Positions 6,723-57,730 of a stretch of 64,000 nt of DNA are shown here, in pieces (position 1 is the first letter of the stretch; each line of letters opens with the position of its first letter). A program made the translations under genes and the position numbers. The notes under the pieces are model-generated. The model had not been told where the DNA came from and did no database searches. It saw only the letters and a list, made by a program, of their open reading frames with translations. The stretch lies in the NCBI RefSeq assembly GCF_057098645.1, contig NZ_CM169472.1; one strand, given 5' to 3'.

Positions 6723-8030
6723 ATGAAACGTGTTTCTCAAATGACCGCGCTGGCAATGGCTTTAGGGCTGGCTTGCGCTTCTTCGTGGGCCGCTGAACTG
6801 GCGAAGCCTCTTACACTTGACCAGCTTCAACAACAAAATGGCAAAGCGATAGATACTCGCCCCAGCGCGTTTTATAACGGCTGGCCACAAACCTTAAATG
6901 GCCCTTCTGGTCATGAACCTGCCGCCTTAAACCTCTCTGCTAGCTGGCTTGACAAAATGAGCACCGAACAGCTAAACGCGTGGATCAAGCAACATAACCT
7001 GAAAGCCGATGCCCCGGTGGCGCTATACGGTAATGGCAAAGATGTCGACGCAGTCAAAACGCGACTGCAAAAAGCAGGTTTTACGCATATCTCCATTCTG
7101 AGTGACGCGCTAATCGAACCTTCCCGTCTACAAAAACTGCCGCACTTTGAGCAGCTGGTTTATCCGCAATGGCTGCACGACCTGCAACAAGGTAAAGAGG
7201 TTACGGCGAAACCTGCCGGTGACTGGAAAGTCATTGAAGCGGCCTGGGGCGCTCCTAAGCTTTACCTTATCAGCCATATTCCCGGTGCTGACTACATCGA
7301 TACCAACGAAGTGGAAAGCGAACCGCTGTGGAACAAAGTTTCTGATGAACAACTAAAAGCGATGCTGGCAAAACACGGCATTCGCCATGACACCACGGTC
7401 ATTCTGTACGGGCGTGACGTATACGCTGCAGCGCGTGTGGCGCAGATTATGCTTTATGCCGGCGTGAATGATGTGCGCCTGCTGGATGGCGGCTGGCAAA
7501 CCTGGTCCGACGCGGGACTGCCTGTTGAGCGAGGAACGCCACCGAAAGTGAAAGCGGAACCGGATTTCGGCGTGAAGATCCCGGCACAACCGCAACTAAT
7601 GCTTGATATGGAACAGGCGCGTGGACTGCTGCATCGCCAGGATGCATCGCTGGTGAGCATTCGTTCGTGGCCAGAGTTTATCGGTACGACCAGCGGTTAC
7701 AGCTATATTAAACCAAAAGGTGAAATAGCCGGAGCACGTTGGGGACACGCTGGTAGCGACTCGACGCATATGGAAGATTTCCATAACCCGGATGGCACCA
7801 TGCGTAGCGCCGATGATATTACCGCTATGTGGAAAGCATGGAATATCAAACCAGATCAGCAAGTTTCATTCTACTGCGGCACCGGCTGGCGCGCGTCCGA
7901 AACCTTTATGTACGCACGAGCAATGGGCTGGAATAACGTCTCCGTTTACGACGGCGGCTGGTACGAATGGAGCAGCGATCCAAAAAATCCGGTAGCAACC
8001 GGTGAACGCGGCCCGGACAGCAGCAAATAA
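6723..8030 (+). CDS. ynjE: Periplasmic rhodanese-domain sulfurtransferase (thiosulfate sulfurtransferase family)
   Basis: 435 aa from internal ATG (MKRVSQMTALAMALGLACASSWA signal peptide); tandem rhodanese-like architecture with CGTGWR active-site loop. Confidence 0.85.
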   Translation: MKRVSQMTALAMALGLACASSWAAELAKPLTLDQLQQQNGKAIDTRPSAFYNGWPQTLNGPSGHEPAALNLSASWLDKMSTEQLNAWIKQHNLKADAPVALYGNGKDVDAVKTRLQKAGFTHISILSDALIEPSRLQKLPHFEQLVYPQWLHDLQQGKEVTAKPAGDWKVIEAAWGAPKLYLISHIPGADYIDTNEVESEPLWNKVSDEQLKAMLAKHGIRHDTTVILYGRDVYAAARVAQIMLYAGVNDVRLLDGGWQTWSDAGLPVERGTPPKVKAEPDFGVKIPAQPQLMLDMEQARGLLHRQDASLVSIRSWPEFIGTTSGYSYIKPKGEIAGARWGHAGSDSTHMEDFHNPDGTMRSADDITAMWKAWNIKPDQQVSFYCGTGWRASETFMYARAMGWNNVSVYDGGWYEWSSDPKNPVATGERGPDSSK

Positions 8031-8038
8031 CATTGCAA

Positions 8039-8659
8039 TTACTGACGCTGGAGCGACTTCAGCGTCAGATACCCACTCCACACCCGCGTAAAGGTCGTCA
8101 TCCAGCACAACGCACCAAATACCCACGCAAACCACGGAAAACAGGTCGGAAAGAGGCAACTCAGAACAAACAGCAAAATCGTCTCGCTGCCTTCGGTTAA
8201 CCCGCCCAGATAATAAAACGATTTATGCGCATAACCGGGATTATCAATCTGATGTTTCGCCGCCAGCGCAGCAAAGGCGAGAAAACTGCTGCCCGTACCA
8301 ATAAACGCAAACAGCAGCCAGCCGCCTGCCAGCGCATTTTGCTCCGGTGCAGCAAGAATAAACCCAAAAGGCACCAGCGCGTAAAAAAGAAAATCGAGAG
8401 AAATATCGAGAAAGCCGCCCGCGTCGGTAAGCCCTCTGCGCCGCGCCAGCGCACCGTCCAGACCATCAAGCAGCCTGTTCAACAAAATGACGACTAGCGC
8501 CGCCAGATACCAGCCCAGCGCCAGAAACGGCAGAGCCAGCACGCCGATGGCAAATCCCACTAATGTTAAACCATCTGGCGTAATGCCCGGTTTATCAAGA
8601 ACCCGCACGCACTGATGCAACAACGGTTTAATCCGGGGATGAAGATGGCGGTCTAGCAC
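8039..8659 (-). CDS. ynjF: CDP-alcohol phosphatidyltransferase family membrane protein
   Basis: Minus-strand ORF; GTG at 8657-8659 lies 5 nt downstream of an AGGAG Shine-Dalgarno; 206 aa; motif DGLDGALAR. Confidence 0.8.
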   Translation of the reverse strand: MLDRHLHPRIKPLLHQCVRVLDKPGITPDGLTLVGFAIGVLALPFLALGWYLAALVVILLNRLLDGLDGALARRRGLTDAGGFLDISLDFLFYALVPFGFILAAPEQNALAGGWLLFAFIGTGSSFLAFAALAAKHQIDNPGYAHKSFYYLGGLTEGSETILLFVLSCLFPTCFPWFAWVFGALCWMTTFTRVWSGYLTLKSLQRQ

Positions 8660-8745
8660 AGGCACTCCTTAAATATAAAGCCTTTCTGATTGAGCAACAG
8701 TGCGGATATTATGGCATTTTTCGCTTATCTGCCCGTGTGTAATTT

Positions 8746-9153
8746 ATGAAAATGATTGAAGTTGTTGCCGCCATCATTGAACGTGATGGCAAAATTTTAC
8801 TCGCGCAACGCCCCGCCCAGAGCGATCAGGCGGGATTATGGGAGTTTGCCGGTGGTAAAGTCGAGCCGGATGAAAGTCAGCGGCAGGCGCTGGTGCGTGA
8901 GTTACGCGAAGAACTGGGCATCGAAGCAACTGTGGGTGAGTATGTTACCAGCCATCAGCGAGAAGTTTCGGGGCGAATTATCCATCTTCATGCCTGGCAC
9001 GTACCCGACTTCCACGGGACGTTACAGGCTCATGAACATCAGGCGCTGGTCTGGTGCTCACCTGAAGAGGCGCTGCAATATCCGCTGGCCCCTGCTGACA
9101 TTCCACTATTAGAGGCATTTATAGCTTTACGCGCCGCCAGACCAGCGGATTAG
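8746..9153 (+). CDS. nudG: Nudix hydrolase, (d)CTP pyrophosphohydrolase
   Basis: 135-aa ORF with Nudix box (GGKVEPDESQRQALVRELREELGIE). Confidence 0.85.
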   Translation: MKMIEVVAAIIERDGKILLAQRPAQSDQAGLWEFAGGKVEPDESQRQALVRELREELGIEATVGEYVTSHQREVSGRIIHLHAWHVPDFHGTLQAHEHQALVWCSPEEALQYPLAPADIPLLEAFIALRAARPAD

Positions 9154-9391
9154 TGCTAAGGGTTTTGTCATCACGCTGGCATTGCAGCAGTATTCCTTCG
9201 GCTTTAATTACCGCTCCTTCAGAATAATTTTTATCCTGATAAACGCAGCACTGAGTACAGGGCTGCGCTGACTGCCCGCCTGAACTGAACACTTCTGGCG
9301 GTACGTTAACCTCCACGTCCGGACGATAATGCGGGTTAGCCAGTGCAATTAATGGAAATGCTAATACTACGGCGAACAATGCTCGACTCAC
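9119..9391 (-). CDS. ynjH: Small secreted protein, DUF1496 family
   Basis: 90-aa ORF with N-terminal signal peptide; convergent with nudG and overlapping its 3' end by 35 nt. Confidence 0.75.
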   Translation of the reverse strand: MSRALFAVVLAFPLIALANPHYRPDVEVNVPPEVFSSGGQSAQPCTQCCVYQDKNYSEGAVIKAEGILLQCQRDDKTLSTNPLVWRRVKL

Positions 9392-32830: not shown

Positions 32831-33144
32831 TCACACCATATCCAGCGCAGTTTTTCCTTTTGGTGCCGGATACGCTTTGTCCAGCATGGCTAATTCCGCT
32901 GACGAAAGTTCGACCTCAAGCACAGCCGCATTCTGTTGGACATGGGCAATCGTGGCCGCTTTTGGAATCGCCATCACACCCTGATGGCTGATTACCCACG
33001 CCAACAATACTTGTGCCGCGCTGATATTGTGAGCATGTGCAATTTCGTTGACTACCGCGTTTTTTAACAGTCCATTGCGCAACCGCCCGGCCTGGGCTAA
33101 CGGACTGTAAGCCATCACCGGCATCTGCTGTTGCTGGCACCAGG
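32831..33144 (-). pseudogene. yeaE: yeaE (aldo-keto reductase) 3' fragment, separated from the 5' part by an IS21-family insertion
   Basis: Minus-strand reading frame ...WCQQQQMPVMAYSPLAQAG... ending at stop 32831-32833; native frame reaches the insertion junction at 33144. Confidence 0.8.
33138..33144. repeat. Target-site duplication CACCAGG (left copy)
   Basis: Identical 7-mer directly flanks both ends of the IS (33138-33144 and 35784-35790). Confidence 0.8.
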
Positions 33145-33346
33145 TGCAAAATGGCATCTGAATCGATCGCAGTTTGGCATTCGAATCGATCATGATTTGG
33201 CATCCATCTCCGATCACAGTTTGGCATCACAATCGATCACGATTTGGCATGCTTCCGATCATTGATTGGCATCCTGCCAGTCACTCCGGGAATTAACTCT
33301 TTTCACCACAGTCTCCATTGCCGTGTTTAAACCAGTGGAGACGTCA

Positions 33347-34912
33347 ATGTCCAGAAAGAGAAAATCCAGGAGCACTATGGAAACCTGTTTTAAGATCCTT
33401 CAGCTCAAGTTCGACAAGAAGCTGACTAACCGTTGTATCGGACTGACGTTACACATCAGCGCCTCAACCGTTTTTGAGGTTCTTGCCCGCTTCAAAGCCT
33501 CTTCTCTGTCATGGCCATTACCTGCTGATATATCCCATGACACGCTGGAGAAACTCATTTTTCCGCCCAAAGACACCTTTGCATCAGAGCTTGTAATGCC
33601 TGACATGTTGTACTTCGATACGGAAATGAGAAAACCAGGTGTGACGCGGCAACTGTTGTGGATGGAATACAAGGCACAGGCGGGTAACAAAGCGATGGGA
33701 TACTCGCACTTCTGCCGTTGCTACCGGGAGTGGAAAAAAACGCGACGTCTCTCCATGCGCCAGGAGCATCGTGCCGGCGAAAAGCTTTTTATCGACTTCT
33801 GTGGTCCTACGGTTCCTGTTATTAATCCGGACACCGGTGAGATACGCCGCGTGGCAATCTTCGTGGCCGTAATGGGGGCGTCCAACTATACCTACGTTGA
33901 AGCGTGCGAAGGTCAGGACATGATGTCATGGTTAAATGCCCACAGCCGTTGCCTGACCTTCCTGGGCGGCGTACCGAAGCTGCTCATCCCCGATAACCTC
34001 AGAAGCGCAGTGAAAAAGGCCGATCGATATGAGCCTGTCATCAACGACAGTTATCAGGCACTGGCTGAGCACTATGGCACGGTTATCATCCCGGCCCGAC
34101 CACGCAAACCTAAAGATAAACCAAAAGCAGAAAACGGCGTCCTCATCGTTGAACGATGGCTTCTTGCCCGCATCCGTAATGAAACCTTCCACACGCTCAG
34201 GGCGCTGAATGCGCGCCTTAGGGAGTTACTGACAGACATGAATAACCGGCCAATGAAGGGGTACGGCAATCAAACCCGTGCAGAACGCTTCCGCATACTG
34301 GATGCGCCAGCACTCTCTCCGCTGCCTCTGGCACCTTATGAATACACGGAATACAAAGCTGTGAAGGTTGGCCCTGACTACCACGTTGAATATGCCCGTC
34401 ACTGGTACTCCGTTCCACACGAACTGGTCGGTCAGCGTCTGTCACTGAAGGCGGGGCAGTCGGTGGTACAGCTCTGGCACAAGGGGCAGTGTGTGGCGCA
34501 ACATCCGCGCAGCACACATGAATATAAACACACAACCAATCCGCTTCACATGCCAGAGCGCCACCGGCAGCACGGGACATGGACACCGGAACGCCTGATC
34601 GAGCAGGGAAAACGTACGGGCCCGTCCACAGGCCGGGTGGTTGAATCCATGCTGAAGGCAAAACCCCATCCGGAACTGGCTTATCGTGCAGTTCTGGGGC
34701 TGCTGGCACTTCAGAAAAAATACGGCCCGGAACGGCTGGAAAAGGCCTGTTACGTTGCCCTGCACTATAACGCCCCTGACAGACGCTTTATCGACAATCT
34801 GCTGCGTCACCATCGGGAGAACCTGGAGCTTCCATTATCCCGCCAGGGCGAACAACATCCGGCATATGCTTCAGAGCATGAAAACCTGCGTGGTCCGGGC
34901 TACTACCACTGA
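33347..34912 (+). CDS. istA: IS21-family transposase IstA
   Basis: 521 aa from ATG 33347 preceded by GGAGA; N-terminal HTH region and DDE integrase core; organisation typical of IS21 family. Confidence 0.8.
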   Translation: MSRKRKSRSTMETCFKILQLKFDKKLTNRCIGLTLHISASTVFEVLARFKASSLSWPLPADISHDTLEKLIFPPKDTFASELVMPDMLYFDTEMRKPGVTRQLLWMEYKAQAGNKAMGYSHFCRCYREWKKTRRLSMRQEHRAGEKLFIDFCGPTVPVINPDTGEIRRVAIFVAVMGASNYTYVEACEGQDMMSWLNAHSRCLTFLGGVPKLLIPDNLRSAVKKADRYEPVINDSYQALAEHYGTVIIPARPRKPKDKPKAENGVLIVERWLLARIRNETFHTLRALNARLRELLTDMNNRPMKGYGNQTRAERFRILDAPALSPLPLAPYEYTEYKAVKVGPDYHVEYARHWYSVPHELVGQRLSLKAGQSVVQLWHKGQCVAQHPRSTHEYKHTTNPLHMPERHRQHGTWTPERLIEQGKRTGPSTGRVVESMLKAKPHPELAYRAVLGLLALQKKYGPERLEKACYVALHYNAPDRRFIDNLLRHHRENLELPLSRQGEQHPAYASEHENLRGPGYYH

Positions 34913-34928
34913 CAGAAGGAACAACAGT

Positions 34929-35684
34929 ATGAGTGATAACCTGTTAAACAAACTGACCCAACTGAAACTCCCGGCGATGGCCGGGAGCCTGATACGGCAG
35001 CGGGAAACGCCTCAGACCTACGACGAACTGTCGTTCGAGGAAAGGCTGACGCTGCTGGTTGATGACGAGCTTCTGAGCAGGGAAAACAGCCGTGTGGCAC
35101 GGTTGAGAAAAAATGCCGGCCTGAAATACCAGGCAACACCGGAAGGGCTGCGCTATCCGGCCTCAAGAGGTCTGCGGGCTGAACAGATGAGAGAACTGCT
35201 GAACGGCCACTACATAACCCACAGGAAAAACCTGCTGATAACCGGTCCGACAGGATGTGGCAAGAGCTGGATAGCCAATGCGCTGGGCGAACAGGCATGT
35301 CGACAGAAACACAGCGTCCGGTACTGTAGAACCGGGCGATTACTGGAACAACTGGCTCAGGGACGTGTTGATGGCAGCTGGCTGAAATATCTGAAACAGT
35401 TGCAAAAAATACAGGTTCTAATCCTGGACGATCTGGGGCTGGAACAGTTAAGTAACGCCCAGTGTAATGACCTTCTGGAGCTCATAGAGGATCGTTACGG
35501 ACAAAGCAGCACGATAGTGGTAAGCCAGTTCCCGGTAGATAAATGGCATGGTCTGATGGAGAACCCAACAACAGCAGATGCCATCCTGGACAGACTGGTA
35601 CATAACTCACACCGAGTGGTCCTTCAGGGAGAGTCACTGAGGAAAAATCCCCCGGTAGTGGAAAGCAGCGAAAAAACGCGTTAA
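34929..35684 (+). CDS. istB: IS21-family helper ATPase IstB
   Basis: 251 aa; Walker A GPTGCGKS and Walker B ILDDLG; 16 nt after istA with GAAGGA RBS. Confidence 0.85.
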   Translation: MSDNLLNKLTQLKLPAMAGSLIRQRETPQTYDELSFEERLTLLVDDELLSRENSRVARLRKNAGLKYQATPEGLRYPASRGLRAEQMRELLNGHYITHRKNLLITGPTGCGKSWIANALGEQACRQKHSVRYCRTGRLLEQLAQGRVDGSWLKYLKQLQKIQVLILDDLGLEQLSNAQCNDLLELIEDRYGQSSTIVVSQFPVDKWHGLMENPTTADAILDRLVHNSHRVVLQGESLRKNPPVVESSEKTR

Positions 35685-35783
35685 AAAGCGGTAGAAAAAG
35701 TTAAGTTCCCGGTTGATCGAATGGATGCGAATCGCTGATCGGACTTCGATGCCAATCCGTGATCGAATAGAGCGGAATACGCA

Positions 35784-51580: not shown

Positions 51581-52504
51581 TCAGGCATGCTCCAGTGAAA
51601 AATTCGGGTAGTGCTCGGCAAAATACTGGCGTAAAAATTCTACCGTTATCCGCACTTTCGCTGACGTCGCCAGCCTTGAAACATAAACGGCCCAGACGTT
51701 CGCTGGCTGGTAATATTCCGGTAGCACTTGCACTAAATGACCACTGGCAATGTTTTCGCTAACATCCCACCAGGAACGCAAAGCAATCCCCTGCCCATCG
51801 AGACACCACTGATGGACAATTTCTCCATGATTAGACGACAGTGGGCCGGTGACTTTAATCGCATGGTGGCCTTCTTTATTGCGTAATTGCCAGACACCAA
51901 AAGGATGATCGCGCTCTTTAATGACCAGGCACGGCAATGCAGAAAGATCGGTTAAATGTTTCGGCGCGCCATGTTGCGCAATAAATTCCGGCGACGCGCA
52001 GAGAATGCGGTAATTGGTCGCCAGTTTGCGGGCGATTAAATTAGGGGCGATGTCATCGCCAATGCGAATATCGAGATCGACACCTTCATTGACCAAATCG
52101 ACCAGCCGGTCTTCCACATCAAAACGTAATTCCAGTTGCGGATACGCCTTCGCCAGCGCTGATAACGCCGGAGCCACCACCTGTCGTCCAAAACCAAAGC
52201 TGCTGATAATACGCAGCATCCCCTGTGGCACCTGACGCACGTCAGAAAGTTCGTCCATCATCTGACCGACATCCTGCAAAATCCGCTGCGCCCATTCATA
52301 AATCCGCTCTCCTTCTTCGGTAATGGTGACGCGGCGGGTGGTGCGGTGTAACAACACCACGTTTAGCGTTTGCTCCAGCAAGGCGATGCGCTTGCTGACG
52401 AACGCCGGTGAAACGCCCAGTTCTTCCGCCACGGCGGCAAAACCAGCCCGGCGAGCCACCAGCATAAAGACGCGCAAATCATTCAGCAGCGGTAAATTAT
52501 TCAT
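51581..52504 (-). CDS. dmlR: LysR-family transcriptional regulator
   Basis: 307 aa from internal ATG (MNNLPLLNDLRVFMLVARRAGFAAVAEELGVSPAFVS...); divergent from dmlA. Confidence 0.85.
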   Translation of the reverse strand: MNNLPLLNDLRVFMLVARRAGFAAVAEELGVSPAFVSKRIALLEQTLNVVLLHRTTRRVTITEEGERIYEWAQRILQDVGQMMDELSDVRQVPQGMLRIISSFGFGRQVVAPALSALAKAYPQLELRFDVEDRLVDLVNEGVDLDIRIGDDIAPNLIARKLATNYRILCASPEFIAQHGAPKHLTDLSALPCLVIKERDHPFGVWQLRNKEGHHAIKVTGPLSSNHGEIVHQWCLDGQGIALRSWWDVSENIASGHLVQVLPEYYQPANVWAVYVSRLATSAKVRITVEFLRQYFAEHYPNFSLEHA

Positions 52505-52609
52505 GATTCGTGTTTTATGTTTCACCAGTTACGGGGATTAATTCCTTTTCAGTCAATTATAGGATGGTGATGTTGTCAATTTTGATGGTCAGGAAGTGAG
52601 AACCCAATA

Positions 52610-53692
52610 ATGAAAACGATGCGTATTGCTGCGATCCCGGGAGACGGGATTGGCAAAGAAGTCCTTCCTGAAGGGATTCGCGTGTTACAGGCTGCCGCTG
52701 AGCGCTGGGGCTTCGCCTTGAGTTTTGAGCAAATGGAGTGGGCGAGCTGCGAGTATTACAGCCATCACGGTAAAATGATGCCGGACGACTGGCATGAGCA
52801 ACTTAGCCGTTTCGACGCCATCTATTTTGGTGCCGTCGGCTGGCCGGACACCGTTCCGGACCATATTTCGTTGTGGGGTTCGCTGCTGAAATTTCGTCGT
52901 GAATTCGACCAGTACGTCAACCTGCGCCCGGTTCGTCTCTTTCCTGGCGTTCCCTGCCCGCTGGCGGGAAAACAGCCTGGCGACATCGATTTTTACGTGG
53001 TCAGGGAAAACACCGAAGGCGAATATTCCTCGCTCGGCGGTAGAGTGAATGAAGGTACAGAGCATGAAGTCGTCATTCAGGAATCGGTATTTACGCGTCG
53101 TGGTGTCGATCGCATTTTGCGTTATGCCTTCGAACTTGCGCAAAGCCGCCCACGTAAGACGCTAACTTCTGCCACTAAATCAAACGGTTTAGCCATCAGC
53201 ATGCCGTACTGGGATGAGCGAGTGGAAGCAATGGCCGAGAATTACCCGGAGATCCGCTGGGACAAGCAGCATATTGATATTCTCTGCGCGCGTTTTGTGA
53301 TGCAGCCGGAACGCTTCGATGTGGTGGTGGCGTCCAATTTGTTTGGCGATATCCTTTCCGATCTTGGCCCGGCCTGCACCGGCACCATTGGCATTGCCCC
53401 ATCCGCCAACCTGAATCCGGAACGCACTTTCCCGTCGCTCTTCGAGCCTGTCCACGGTTCCGCGCCGGATATCTACGGGAAAAATATTGCTAACCCTATC
53501 GCCACAATTTGGGCCGGTGCAATGATGCTCGATTTTCTCGGCAATGGCGATGAGCGTTTCCAGCAAGCGCATAACGGTATTCTGGCAGCGATTGAAGAAG
53601 TGATTGCTCACGGGCCGAAAACACCGGATATGAAAGGCAGTGCCACCACGCCACAGGTTGCCGACGCGATTTGCAAAATTATTTTGCGTTAA
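52610..53692 (+). CDS. dmlA: D-malate / tartrate dehydrogenase (decarboxylating), isocitrate/isopropylmalate dehydrogenase family
   Basis: 360-aa ORF (MKTMRIAAIPGDGIGKEV...), family signature. Confidence 0.9.
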   Translation: MKTMRIAAIPGDGIGKEVLPEGIRVLQAAAERWGFALSFEQMEWASCEYYSHHGKMMPDDWHEQLSRFDAIYFGAVGWPDTVPDHISLWGSLLKFRREFDQYVNLRPVRLFPGVPCPLAGKQPGDIDFYVVRENTEGEYSSLGGRVNEGTEHEVVIQESVFTRRGVDRILRYAFELAQSRPRKTLTSATKSNGLAISMPYWDERVEAMAENYPEIRWDKQHIDILCARFVMQPERFDVVVASNLFGDILSDLGPACTGTIGIAPSANLNPERTFPSLFEPVHGSAPDIYGKNIANPIATIWAGAMMLDFLGNGDERFQQAHNGILAAIEEVIAHGPKTPDMKGSATTPQVADAICKIILR

Positions 53693-53711
53693 GGTCAAAC
53701 CAGTTTATTTG

Positions 53712-53738
53712 AACCGCGTCACTGACGCGGTTTTTTTA
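53712..53738 (+). terminator. Rho-independent terminator of dmlA
   Basis: AACCGCGTCA-CTGACGCGGTTTTTTTATT: hairpin plus T-run 20 nt after the stop. Confidence 0.6.
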
Positions 53739-53942
53739 TTCGTTCTTTGCAGTTAATAACCTGCGTCATTTCACCTTTTATTGTTTCCGTTTCGTGTTTT
53801 ATGGCTTTCCGTATTCTTAATTGTTTAATTTATGTAACATGCAAATAATCAATTTGTTAAACACAACATACAACTCATTACCCTGCAAATAATTACAACT
53901 GGCAAAAGCCAGAGACGGGCTTTTATGCCCAGGAGATGACTC

Positions 53943-55553
53943 ATGATGAGCAATGTTAAGAAAAAAGATGTGCCGCTGATAAGCATCAGCCTGGTGGCCA
54001 TTCTTTTCATCGCAGCTGCATTAAGCCTTTTCCCACAACAATCGACCGACGCGGCCAACGCAATATACACTTTTGTTACGCGTACGTTAGGTTCCGCAGT
54101 ACAGGTATTGGTTTTGCTGGCAATGGGACTGGTGATTTATTTAGCCACCAGTAAATACGGCAATATTCGTCTTGGCGAAGGAAAACCGGAATACAGCACG
54201 CTCTCCTGGCTGTTTATGTTTATTTGTGCCGGTTTAGGTTCTTCTACGCTTTATTGGGGGGTTGCTGAATGGGCCTATTATTATCAAACGCCTGGATTAA
54301 ATATCGCACCGCGTTCACAACAGGCACTCGAATTTAGCGTCCCTTACTCCTTCTTCCACTGGGGCATCAGCGCCTGGGCAACTTATACGCTGGCCTCATT
54401 AATCATGGCTTATCACTTTCATGTGCGGAAAAACAAAGGTCTGAGTCTTTCCGGCATTATTGCCGCGATTACCGGCGTTCGCCCGCAAGGCCCATGGGGA
54501 AAACTGGTTGATTTGATGTTCCTGATCGCCACTGTCGGCGCACTGACTATTTCCCTTGTTGTCACCGCAGCAACCTTTACTCGTGGACTTTCCGCACTGA
54601 CCGGTTTACCCGATAACTTCACCGTGCAGGCATTTGTGATCCTGCTTTCCGGCGGCATTTTTTGCCTAAGCTCATGGATTGGTATCAACAACGGTTTGCA
54701 ACGTCTGAGCAAAATGGTTGGCTGGGGCGCGTTCCTGCTGCCATTACTGGTGCTGATTGTCGGTCCAACCGAATTTATTACCAACAGCATCATCAATGCC
54801 ATCGGCCTGACCACGCAAAACTTCCTGCAAATGAGCTTATTCACCGATCCGCTTGGCGATGGTTCATTTACCCGCAACTGGACCGTTTTCTACTGGCTGT
54901 GGTGGATCTCATACACCCCTGGCGTAGCAATGTTTGTCACCCGCGTTTCCCGCGGTCGTAAGATTAAAGAAGTTATCTGGGGACTGATCCTCGGCAGCAC
55001 CGTCGGTTGCTGGTTCTTCTTCGGCGTAATGGAAAGCTATGCCATTCATCAGTTTATCAATGGCGTAATCAACGTCCCACAGGTGCTGGAAACACTGGGC
55101 GGCGAAACAGCTGTACAGCAAGTTCTGATGTCGTTGCCAGCCGGTAAATTGTTCCTCGCCGCATACCTGGGCGTGATGATTATTTTCCTTGCCTCGCATA
55201 TGGATGCAGTGGCCTAAACCATGGCGGCGACCAGTACGCGTAATCTCCAGGAAGGTGACGATCCTGACCGTGGGCTGCGTCTTTTCTGGTGCGTGGTGAT
55301 CACTCTGATCCCGCTTTCCATCTTGTTTACCGGTGCTTCGCTGGAAACGATGAAAACCACCGTCGTGCTCACAGCCCTTCCCTTCCTCGTCATTTTACTG
55401 GTGAAAGTCGGCGGATTTATTCGCTGGCTGAAACAGGATTACGCCGACATTCCGGCTCATCAAGTTGAACATTATCTCCCGCAGACACCGGTTGAAGCCC
55501 TGGAAAAAACACCAGTGCTCCCTGCGGGAACCGTATTCAAAGGCGACAACTGA
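53943..55553 (+). pseudogene. yeaV: BCCT-family transporter gene interrupted by an in-frame TAA at 55215-55217
   Basis: ORFs 53943-55217 and 55221-55553 are in the same frame; the downstream ORF encodes the conserved final TM segments; the stop sits where BCCT transporters have a conserved Tyr (CaiT SYTLAMS), consistent with TAT/TAC to TAA. Confidence 0.6.
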
Positions 55554-55584
55554 GCGCCATCATCCTAACGATAAAGGTATCCCT

Positions 55585-56709
55585 ATGAGCAATCTGAGCC
55601 CTGACTTTGTACTACCCGAAAATTTTTGCGCTAACCCGCAAGAGGCGTGGACCATTCCTGCCCGTTTTTATACCGATCAGAACGCCTTTGAACACGAAAA
55701 AGAGAACGTCTTCGCCAAAAGCTGGATTTGCGTCGCTCACAGCAGCGAACTGGCGAATGCCAATGATTATGTAACGCGTGAGATCATTGGCGAAAGCATC
55801 GTGCTGGTACGCGGTCGTGATAAGGTTTTGCGCGCGTTCTATAACGTGTGTCCGCACCGTGGTCATCAGTTGTTGAGCGGTGAAGGAAAAGCAAAAAATG
55901 TGATTACCTGCCCATATCACGCATGGGCATTCAAACTCGATGGCAATCTGGCCCATGCACGTAACTGCGAAAACGTCGCCAATTTCGATAGCGACAAAGC
56001 GCAACTGGTTCCGGTGCGTCTGGAAGAATATGCCGGATTCGTCTTCATCAACATGGACCCCAACGCCACCAGCGTAGAAGATCAGTTACCCGGTCTGGGC
56101 GCGAAAGTGCTGGAAGCCTGCCCGGAAGTCCACGATCTGAAACTGGCGGCCCGCTTTACCACCCGTACGCCTGCCAACTGGAAGAACATTGTCGATAACT
56201 ATCTCGAGTGCTATCACTGTGGTCCGGCGCATCCAGGTTTCTCCGACTCCGTACAGATTGATCGTTACTGGCACACCATGCACGGTAACTGGACGCTGCA
56301 ATACGGTTTCGCCAAACCGTCCGAACAGTCGTTTAAATTTGAAGAGGGTACGGATGCGGCATTCCACGGTTTCTGGCTGTGGCCGTGCACGATGCTGAAC
56401 GTCACCCCGATCAAAGGGATGATGACGGTCATTTATGAATTCCCGGTGGATTCTGAAACTACCCTGCAAAACTACGATATTTACTTCACCAATGAAGAGT
56501 TAACCGACGAGCAAAAATCGCTGATTGAGTGGTATCGCGATGTGTTCCGTCCGGAAGATTTACGTCTGGTTGAAAGCGTACAGAAAGGGCTGAAATCGCG
56601 TGGCTATCGTGGTCAGGGGCGCATCATGGCCGACAGTAGCGGTAGCGGCATTTCCGAACATGGTATCGCCCATTTCCATAATCTGCTGGCGCAGGTATTT
56701 AAGGACTAA
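55585..56709 (+). CDS. yeaW: Rieske [2Fe-2S] oxygenase subunit (carnitine monooxygenase CntA-like)
   Basis: 374 aa from internal ATG (MSNLSPDFVLPENF...); Rieske motif CPHRGH...CPYHAW. Confidence 0.9.
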   Translation: MSNLSPDFVLPENFCANPQEAWTIPARFYTDQNAFEHEKENVFAKSWICVAHSSELANANDYVTREIIGESIVLVRGRDKVLRAFYNVCPHRGHQLLSGEGKAKNVITCPYHAWAFKLDGNLAHARNCENVANFDSDKAQLVPVRLEEYAGFVFINMDPNATSVEDQLPGLGAKVLEACPEVHDLKLAARFTTRTPANWKNIVDNYLECYHCGPAHPGFSDSVQIDRYWHTMHGNWTLQYGFAKPSEQSFKFEEGTDAAFHGFWLWPCTMLNVTPIKGMMTVIYEFPVDSETTLQNYDIYFTNEELTDEQKSLIEWYRDVFRPEDLRLVESVQKGLKSRGYRGQGRIMADSSGSGISEHGIAHFHNLLAQVFKD

Positions 56710-56764
56710 TGACATCGGCGGCGGTATTTTCCGCCGCCGGGCTGATTTTTGATGGAGTACAGCA

Positions 56765-57730
56765 ATGTCAGACTATCAAATGTTTGAAGTACAGGTGAGT
56801 CAGGTGGAACCACTTACCGAACAGGTGAAACGCTTCACGCTGGTGGCAACCGATGGCAAACCGCTGCCTGCGTTCACCGGAGGAAGTCACATCATAGTGC
56901 AGATGAGCGATGGTGATAACCAGTACAGCAATGCGTATTCACTACTGAGTTCACCGCATAACACCTCTAGTTATCAGATTGCCGTTCGACTGGAAGAAAA
57001 CTCGCGCGGCGGTTCCCGCTTTTTGCATCAGCAGGTAAAAGTGGGCGATCGGTTAACGATCTCAACGCCTAATAACCTGTTTGCGCTAATTCCCTCAGCC
57101 AGAAAGCATCTGTTTATCGCGGGCGGTATTGGTATCACCCCTTTCCTGTCGCACATGGCAGAGTTGCAACACAGCAACGTCGACTGGCAGCTACATTACT
57201 GCTCGCGAAATCCAGAAAGTTGCGCATTTCGTGATGAGCTAGTCCAGCATCCGCAGGCTGAGAAAGTCCATTTGCATCATTCATCAACCGGAACACGACT
57301 GGAATTAGCGCGATTATTGGCGGATATCGAACCTGGCACACACGTTTATACCTGTGGCCCCGAGGCGCTAATTGAAGCGGTAAGAAGTGAAGCTGCGCGT
57401 CTGGACATCGCCGCCGATACGCTGCACTTTGAGCAATTTGCTATCGAAGACAAAACCGGCGATGCATTTACCCTAGTGCTTGCCCGTTCCGGAAAAGAGT
57501 TTGTGGTGCCGGAAGAGATGACTATTTTGCAGGTTATTGAAAATAATAAAGCCGCGAAAGTGGAATGTTTATGTCGTGAAGGGATATGCGGAACCTGCGA
57601 AACGGCAATACTGGAAGGTGAAGCTGACCATCGGGATCAGTATTTTAGCGATGAAGAGCGTGCCAGCCAGCAAAGTATGTTGATCTGTTGTTCGCGTGCG
57701 AAGGGTAAACGCCTGGTGTTGGATTTGTAG
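56765..57730 (+). CDS. yeaX: Oxygenase reductase subunit (FMN/FAD-NAD binding plus plant-type 2Fe-2S ferredoxin; CntB-like)
   Basis: 321-aa ORF; C-terminal ferredoxin Cys cluster CREGICGTCE. Confidence 0.9.
   Translation: MSDYQMFEVQVSQVEPLTEQVKRFTLVATDGKPLPAFTGGSHIIVQMSDGDNQYSNAYSLLSSPHNTSSYQIAVRLEENSRGGSRFLHQQVKVGDRLTISTPNNLFALIPSARKHLFIAGGIGITPFLSHMAELQHSNVDWQLHYCSRNPESCAFRDELVQHPQAEKVHLHHSSTGTRLELARLLADIEPGTHVYTCGPEALIEAVRSEAARLDIAADTLHFEQFAIEDKTGDAFTLVLARSGKEFVVPEEMTILQVIENNKAAKVECLCREGICGTCETAILEGEADHRDQYFSDEERASQQSMLICCSRAKGKRLVLDL

Follow-up and report, generated by a model that had tools for sequence, protein, structure and literature searches.

The yeaV gene of Escherichia coli encodes a carrier of the BCCT family and lies directly upstream of yeaW and yeaX, which encode the two subunits of a carnitine monooxygenase. 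In the 64-kb stretch of DNA analysed here (the window), yeaV is interrupted by an in-frame TAA codon. This raises the question of whether the carrier has been inactivated in this strain, and by what kind of event, or whether a working transporter is still made in spite of the stop. We consider it very probable that yeaV is a nonsense pseudogene, produced by a C to A change at position 55217 in an O145:H28-related sublineage of E. coli, and that its product would be non-functional. The allele is real and inherited, and it is an ordinary, lineage-specific inactivation of a known accessory transporter gene. The features on which the following sections draw are collected in Table 1.

Table 1. Coordinates of the yeaV locus, its neighbours and the insertion element in the window.
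Feature	Position	Strand	Description and basis
dmlR	51581..52504	-	LysR-type regulator, carR orthologue; HTH_1, LysR_substrate; divergent from dmlA; annotation, conserved synteny
dmlA	52607..53692	+	D-malate/3-isopropylmalate dehydrogenase, mdh orthologue, intact; Iso_dh; annotated in RM12761; identical protein; upstream of the BCCT gene also in Pseudomonas and Cupriavidus
Terminator-like hairpin and T-run after dmlA	53711..53743	+	10-bp stem with 6 GC pairs, then TTTTATT; consensus scan, pattern match only
yeaV, whole gene	53943-55553	+	1,611 bp; in-frame TAA at 55215-55217
yeaV 5' part	53943..55217	+	424 codons plus premature TAA; BCCT carrier, TM1-TM9 plus most of TM10; ORF list, sequence, Pfam, AF2 helix map
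Premature stop TAA	55215..55217	+	C to A at 55217, TAC (Tyr425) to TAA
yeaV 3' remnant	55221..55553	+	in-frame 110-codon ORF from the Met427 codon; TM11, TM12 and C-terminal tail; ends at the native yeaV stop
yeaW (cntA)	55585..56709	+	carnitine monooxygenase oxygenase subunit, intact, 374 aa; Rieske, Ring_hydroxyl_A; motif CPHRGH...CPYH
yeaX (cntB)	56765..57730	+	carnitine monooxygenase reductase subunit, intact, 321 aa; Fer2, DmmA-like_N, NAD_binding_1; identical to the O145 protein
IS21-family element	33145-35776		target-site duplication CACCAGG at 33138-33144 and 35777-35783
IstA-like transposase	33266-34912		rve and Mu-transposase C-terminal domains
IstB-like ATPase	34686-35684		IstB_IS21, 204 bits

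The premature stop codon and its origin

The 424-aa and 110-aa ORFs lie in one frame, their first positions being separated by 1278 nucleotides (55221 - 53943 = 3 x 426), and the sequence around the stop reads ...GCA GTG GCC TAA ACC ATG GCG... A sequence-only reading of this DNA had placed the TAA and the two ORFs at coordinates that the ORF list and the sequence bear out exactly, and had attributed the stop to a single-base change of a tyrosine codon. Base-by-base comparison with E. coli YeaV (b1801; TC 2.A.15.2.3) in its intact O145 form (WP_000987540.1, 536 aa), which is likewise encoded between dmlA and yeaW, supports this attribution: position 55217 is A in the window and C in the intact O145:H28 allele, and this is the sole difference across the 1,611 bp. 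Nor do reference genes end at the same place, as yeaV of K-12 and of all other references runs to the equivalent of 55553. Since the mutation was identified by direct sequence comparison and involves no statistical signal, chance is not at issue.

Both halves of the interrupted gene are still recognizable as parts of one carrier. With a curated cut-off of 27 bits for the Pfam BCCT profile (PF02028), the 424-aa piece matched profile positions 3-413 of 485 with 349.4 bits and the 110-aa piece matched positions 423-485 of 485 with 41 bits, so that the two pieces match consecutive parts of the profile and jointly cover positions 3-485. What is found is an in-frame stop, created by a point substitution at a codon that is a sense codon in the orthologues, as in a nonsense pseudogene. 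One C to A transversion turned the Tyr425 codon into an ochre stop, and translation would end inside the tenth transmembrane helix (TM10).

The carnitine cluster around yeaV

The window has the gene order dmlR-dmlA-yeaV-yeaW-yeaX. RefSeq gives the syntenic genes the same identities, with yeaW and yeaX as the oxygenase and reductase subunits of carnitine monooxygenase. The same order, in the form LysR-Iso_dh-BCCT-Rieske-aldehyde dehydrogenase-reductase, was found in Pseudomonas (two loci) and Cupriavidus (one locus), and Helicobacter aurati has a BCCT-Rieske pair. As this neighbourhood is kept in distant YeaV orthologues, YeaV can be regarded as the carrier that belongs to this CntAB-type carnitine cluster. 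The predicted hairpin after dmlA suggests that yeaV-yeaW-yeaX may form a transcription unit of its own; a sigma-70 consensus scan of positions 53650-55650 found no promoter.

In line with the claim of the sequence-only reading that the enzymes were spared, yeaW and yeaX have no internal stops, match K-12 and O145 in length, and retain their domains, namely those of a Rieske [2Fe-2S] ring-hydroxylating oxygenase and of a Fer2/NAD-binding reductase, which is the make-up of CntAB. YeaW differs from its K-12 and O145 counterparts by a single substitution, V225I. The same reading had held that the putative carrier of the cluster may be truncated while the enzymes are kept, and this is what a stop at codon 425 of yeaV next to full-length yeaW and yeaX amounts to. 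The dedicated quaternary-amine carrier of the cluster would thereby be lost with YeaW and YeaX still intact, and their substrate could enter only via other carriers. Expression of yeaW and yeaX may, in addition, drop through polarity; downstream of the stop there are C-rich stretches, the C/G ratio reaching 1.9 around 55318-55395, which would suit Rho loading but are not evidence of polarity.

A side observation concerns the enzyme set of the cluster. In the Pseudomonas loci (7920-9368) and in Cupriavidus (7850-9301), an aldehyde dehydrogenase gene, probably encoding malic semialdehyde dehydrogenase, lies between the oxygenase and reductase genes. The window has only a 55-bp spacer (56710-56764) between yeaW and yeaX, a feature of E. 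coli that has already been noted (PMC11353897). A malic semialdehyde dehydrogenase (Aldedh) gene, which the complete catabolic pathway would include, was found between the two subunit genes neither in the window nor in reference E. coli, in agreement with the same study (PMC11353897).

What would the loss of this carrier mean? Purified YeaW/YeaX is an active carnitine monooxygenase (PMC9508527), and indirect evidence on the carrier comes from metabolomics, in which carnitine was among the metabolites depleted upon overexpression of yeaV in K-12 (PMC10971958). The putative substrate of YeaV is probably carnitine or gamma-butyrobetaine, both quaternary amines. The most instructive known system is that of Acinetobacter baumannii, where the BCCT carrier Aci01347 occupies the orthologous position in an orthologous cluster, carR-mdh-bcct-hyd-cntA-msadh-cntB, of which hyd and msadh have no counterpart in the E. 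coli cluster. Between the two species, the BCCT proteins share 56% identity (PMC11353897); Aci01347 imports carnitine, and its deletion abolishes growth on carnitine (PMC6562126), which illustrates the effect of losing the carrier where the pathway is in use. In E. coli, the circumstances appear to differ. The strains BL21, B and K-12 fail to grow on carnitine, public expression data give no sign of substantial cntA transcription, and no enzyme activity was detected in BL21 extract (PMC11353897). Given this lack of growth in the tested laboratory strains of E. coli, and with no evident transcription of cntA, the physiological cost of the stop may be small.

Other damaged forms of yeaV and the question of selection

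The K-12 reference yeaV (b1801 in NC_000913.3) differs from the window allele, which encodes 424 aa and has its TAA at codon 425, in another way: it encodes 481 aa from a TTG start, and approximately 225 bp are missing from its 5' end between short TTTGTTA repeats. The deleted segment corresponds to window positions 53847-54070. With it, the 536-aa form loses its ribosome-binding site, its ATG start and some 43 codons at the beginning of the gene, which encode TM1. Judged by this comparison, K-12 yeaV is a poor 'intact' reference because its 5' end is deleted.

Among 5,426 complete E. coli genomes searched by megablast, the gene body of yeaV is present in 4,372 and absent in 1,054 (19%). The start-codon segment was found in 2,929 genomes as against the 4,372 with the gene body, a difference that gives only an upper bound on the deletion frequency, as the probe was a 61-mer inside the K-12-deleted segment; the 5'-deleted form may be common among E. 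coli genomes. Further, many other fragments of yeaV are on record, among them a C-terminal piece of 174 aa seen on 307 contigs and a piece of 156 aa seen on 86, Shigella sonnei being represented among the latter. Taken with the disruptions of ynjI and yeaE elsewhere in the window, the absences, the other fragments and the K-12 deletion fit relaxed selection and routine gene decay, and relaxed selection on yeaV is a plausible reason for the persistence of the TAA allele.

Alternatively, the inactivation of YeaV could itself have been selected, for example against a costly or toxic uptake of quaternary amines or against the formation of trimethylamine (TMA). The argument for such an adaptive loss is that yeaV has seemingly been disrupted repeatedly and in differing ways across E. 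coli and Shigella, the K-12 5' deletion being one case. Recurrent loss is, however, equally expected under relaxed selection. Further, the tested strains fail to grow on carnitine and published support for expression of the cluster in E. coli is lacking, while the frameshifted ynjI and the IS-interrupted yeaE in the same 64-kb window point to general gene decay. It should also be noted that the variation is too scant for a dN/dS estimate, and that on these data adaptive and neutral loss are indistinguishable. We regard a selected loss as unlikely.

If yeaV is, as we favour, a pseudogene that decayed in one lineage, its presence has a practical side. Finding yeaW/cntA in a genome or metagenome is no guarantee that the carnitine-to-TMA module is intact. 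Surveys that use cntA as a proxy for TMA-forming capacity should check the linked carrier gene, since damage to yeaV is frequent in E. coli, as in the 5'-deleted K-12 form and the other recorded fragments.

Tyr425, membrane topology and the truncated product

Tyr425 is invariant in all 30 aligned BCCT sequences, which comprise YeaV orthologues of Enterobacterales, Pseudomonas, Aeromonas, Cupriavidus, Achromobacter and Helicobacter together with E. coli CaiT. The stop had been proposed from the sequence to align with a conserved tyrosine of BCCT carriers, SYTLAMS in CaiT, and CaiT indeed reads NACSYTLAMSTC at this column (…CSYTLAMS…). CaiT, an L-carnitine/gamma-butyrobetaine antiporter (PDB 2WSX, 3HFX, 2WSW), has the 12-TM BCCT fold in common with YeaV and conserves the tyrosine, but the two share only 28% identity, and CaiT is encoded in the anaerobic cai operon, unlinked to an oxygenase. 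The closest solved homologue by sequence is the BCCT carrier DddT (PDB 21fh, 21ff, 21fk, 21fi; E = 6e-100 over residues 16-498), in which Tyr425 is also conserved (…FDSAAY followed by MMASS…); DddT comes from another organism and another gene context and served here only to place the residue.

In Enterobacterales, Pseudomonas, Cupriavidus and Helicobacter, full-length orthologues of YeaV measure 528-548 aa. An AlphaFold2 (AF2) model of the intact TAC allele (pLDDT 83.2, pTM 0.83) places residue 425 inside a helix spanning residues 401-430; two more helices, 443-463 and 467-500, come after it. As the model superposes on CaiT, BetT and BetP (Foldseek TM-scores 0.82-0.89), these three helices can be assigned to TM10, TM11 and TM12 of the BCCT fold, and the intact, ancestral allele is predicted to adopt the 12-TM fold of the LeuT type. 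The stop thus falls within TM10, the tenth of twelve helices, and not in a loop between segments, which refines the earlier description. The expectation that the downstream ORF holds the remaining membrane segments agrees with the AF2 helix map, by which this ORF contains TM11 and TM12. In the window, the complete twelve-helix fold is not encoded as one polypeptide, helices 443-463 and 467-500 being found only on the separate downstream ORF; by this model, the BCCT family member found in the window is a disrupted one, not a functional one.

The 424-aa product retains the conserved Trp-rich TM8 segment that forms the substrate-binding aromatic box, in which all 30 aligned sequences share W313, W318, W321 and Y324. 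It would lack the end of TM10, TM11, TM12 and the cytoplasmic C-terminal tail. Without the end of TM10, TM11 and TM12, the LeuT-type core cannot complete its second repeat of five helices, and for this reason the 424-aa product is expected to be non-functional. The loss of transport is expected, in other words, from the missing TM11 and TM12 and the invariant residue, and the truncated protein would probably be degraded.

Could the two pieces nevertheless work together? Split permeases can complement in other families, as in the case of LacY. Here, translation would terminate at the TAA and re-initiate at the ATG at 55221, and the 424-aa and 110-aa polypeptides would co-assemble into an active transporter. 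The stop and the in-frame ATG are only 3 nt apart, a geometry that allows termination-reinitiation, and the 110-aa ORF has complete TM11 and TM12. If true, a YeaV made of TM1-10 and TM11-12 polypeptides would be a natural split transporter of the BCCT/LeuT fold. However, the break lies within helix 401-430 and not in a loop, the two pieces would together be without the invariant Tyr425, and no strong Shine-Dalgarno sequence precedes the ATG. Further, Met427 is not conserved, being Val in most orthologues, so that the ATG at 55221 is incidental and not an evolved restart. The allele is also rare and recent (found in none of the 5,426 complete genomes). A split carrier therefore has a slim chance at best, and a non-functional truncated product remains the preferred reading.

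Distribution and heritability of the allele

The best matches to yeaV are O145:H28 strains, at 99.9% identity, in which the gene is annotated as 'BCCT family transporter YeaV' of 536 aa. A 61-mer centred on the stop had no exact match in the 5,426 complete E. coli genomes, while 2,225 genomes matched it with one mismatch; as an exact 61-mer match is always detectable by megablast, the allele occurs in no complete RefSeq genome. Such an absence, together with a difference of a single base, is also what would be seen if the true base at 55217 were C, yeaV were intact and the stop were a sequencing or assembly error. Against this, the exact 424-aa protein is found on at least 20 contigs of other public assemblies (NCBI, Logan and ENA), with 24 contigs read from 36 index blocks and 20 contigs counted by the cluster table. 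At the loci displayed, the 424-aa protein is in each case followed by the 110-aa ORF, called as a separate gene, and then by yeaW and yeaX.

These assemblies carry the stop on two haplotypes. The locus of Logan SRR17991919 matches the window base for base across 7,275 bp, whereas NCBI GCA_032490215.1 has the yeaV TAA and differs from the window at 56257 and 57335. The presence of the TAA in independent NCBI, ENA and Logan assemblies, the last being made per SRA run, on two slightly different haplotypes indicates an inherited variant and not an assembly error; further, 55217 does not lie in a homopolymer. The stop appears to be inherited within a small sublineage, and an error is very unlikely, to the point that we see next to no chance of an intact gene behind it. 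As to the neighbouring gene, the G to A change at 56257 produces the YeaW V225I substitution; it is absent from K-12, RM12761, RM9872 and GCA_032490215.1 and present in Logan SRR17991919. Since GCA_032490215.1 has the TAA without V225I, the stop is older than the yeaW substitution.

An inherited stop could still be bypassed, by read-through or by an ochre suppressor tRNA, in which case full-length YeaV would be made. Suppressors of the supC type are Tyr-inserting ochre suppressors, and such a suppressor would give back the exact wild-type residue. However, no tRNA gene was found within the 64-kb window, hence no local suppressor. Of the three stop codons, moreover, UAA is the one that E. coli ribosomes read through least readily, and a conserved recoding signal is lacking, as all relatives have a sense codon at position 425; a bypass is barely conceivable. 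Programmed recoding at 55215-55217 was also considered and rejected, the stop being TAA, with a sense codon in all relatives, and the allele being rare and recent.

The yeaV TAA allele could serve to mark one O145:H28-related sublineage. Otherwise it has little importance beyond strain annotation and raises no new mechanistic question. In the literature, no paper was found that discusses the allele, though it sits in public assemblies.

Strain background and other disrupted genes in the window

By blastn alignment, the window is colinear with O145:H28 RM12761 (NZ_CP007133.1 2141401-2205400) save for 19 substitutions, one deletion of 2 bp and one insertion of 2.6 kb. Relative to the nearest genome, 8 substitutions fall in the 28-kb block around yeaV, of which three are synonymous, three missense, one intergenic and one nonsense; this is ordinary divergence between related strains.

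Two further genes in the window are disrupted. The methylglyoxal reductase gene yeaE is interrupted after approximately codon 181 by a 2,632-bp IS21-family element (Table 1), which is not present in O145:H28 RM12761. Beside yeaV and yeaE, ynjI is the third disrupted gene in the 64-kb window: this gene, which encodes a DUF1266 protein (~11087-12125, minus strand), is frameshifted at about codon 154 by a 2-bp deletion at 11666, GG being gone from AAAAGGAAG relative to RM12761. Outside the window strain, leuE is annotated as a frameshifted pseudogene in O145 RM9872 (locus positions 873-1512) and is intact in RM12761.
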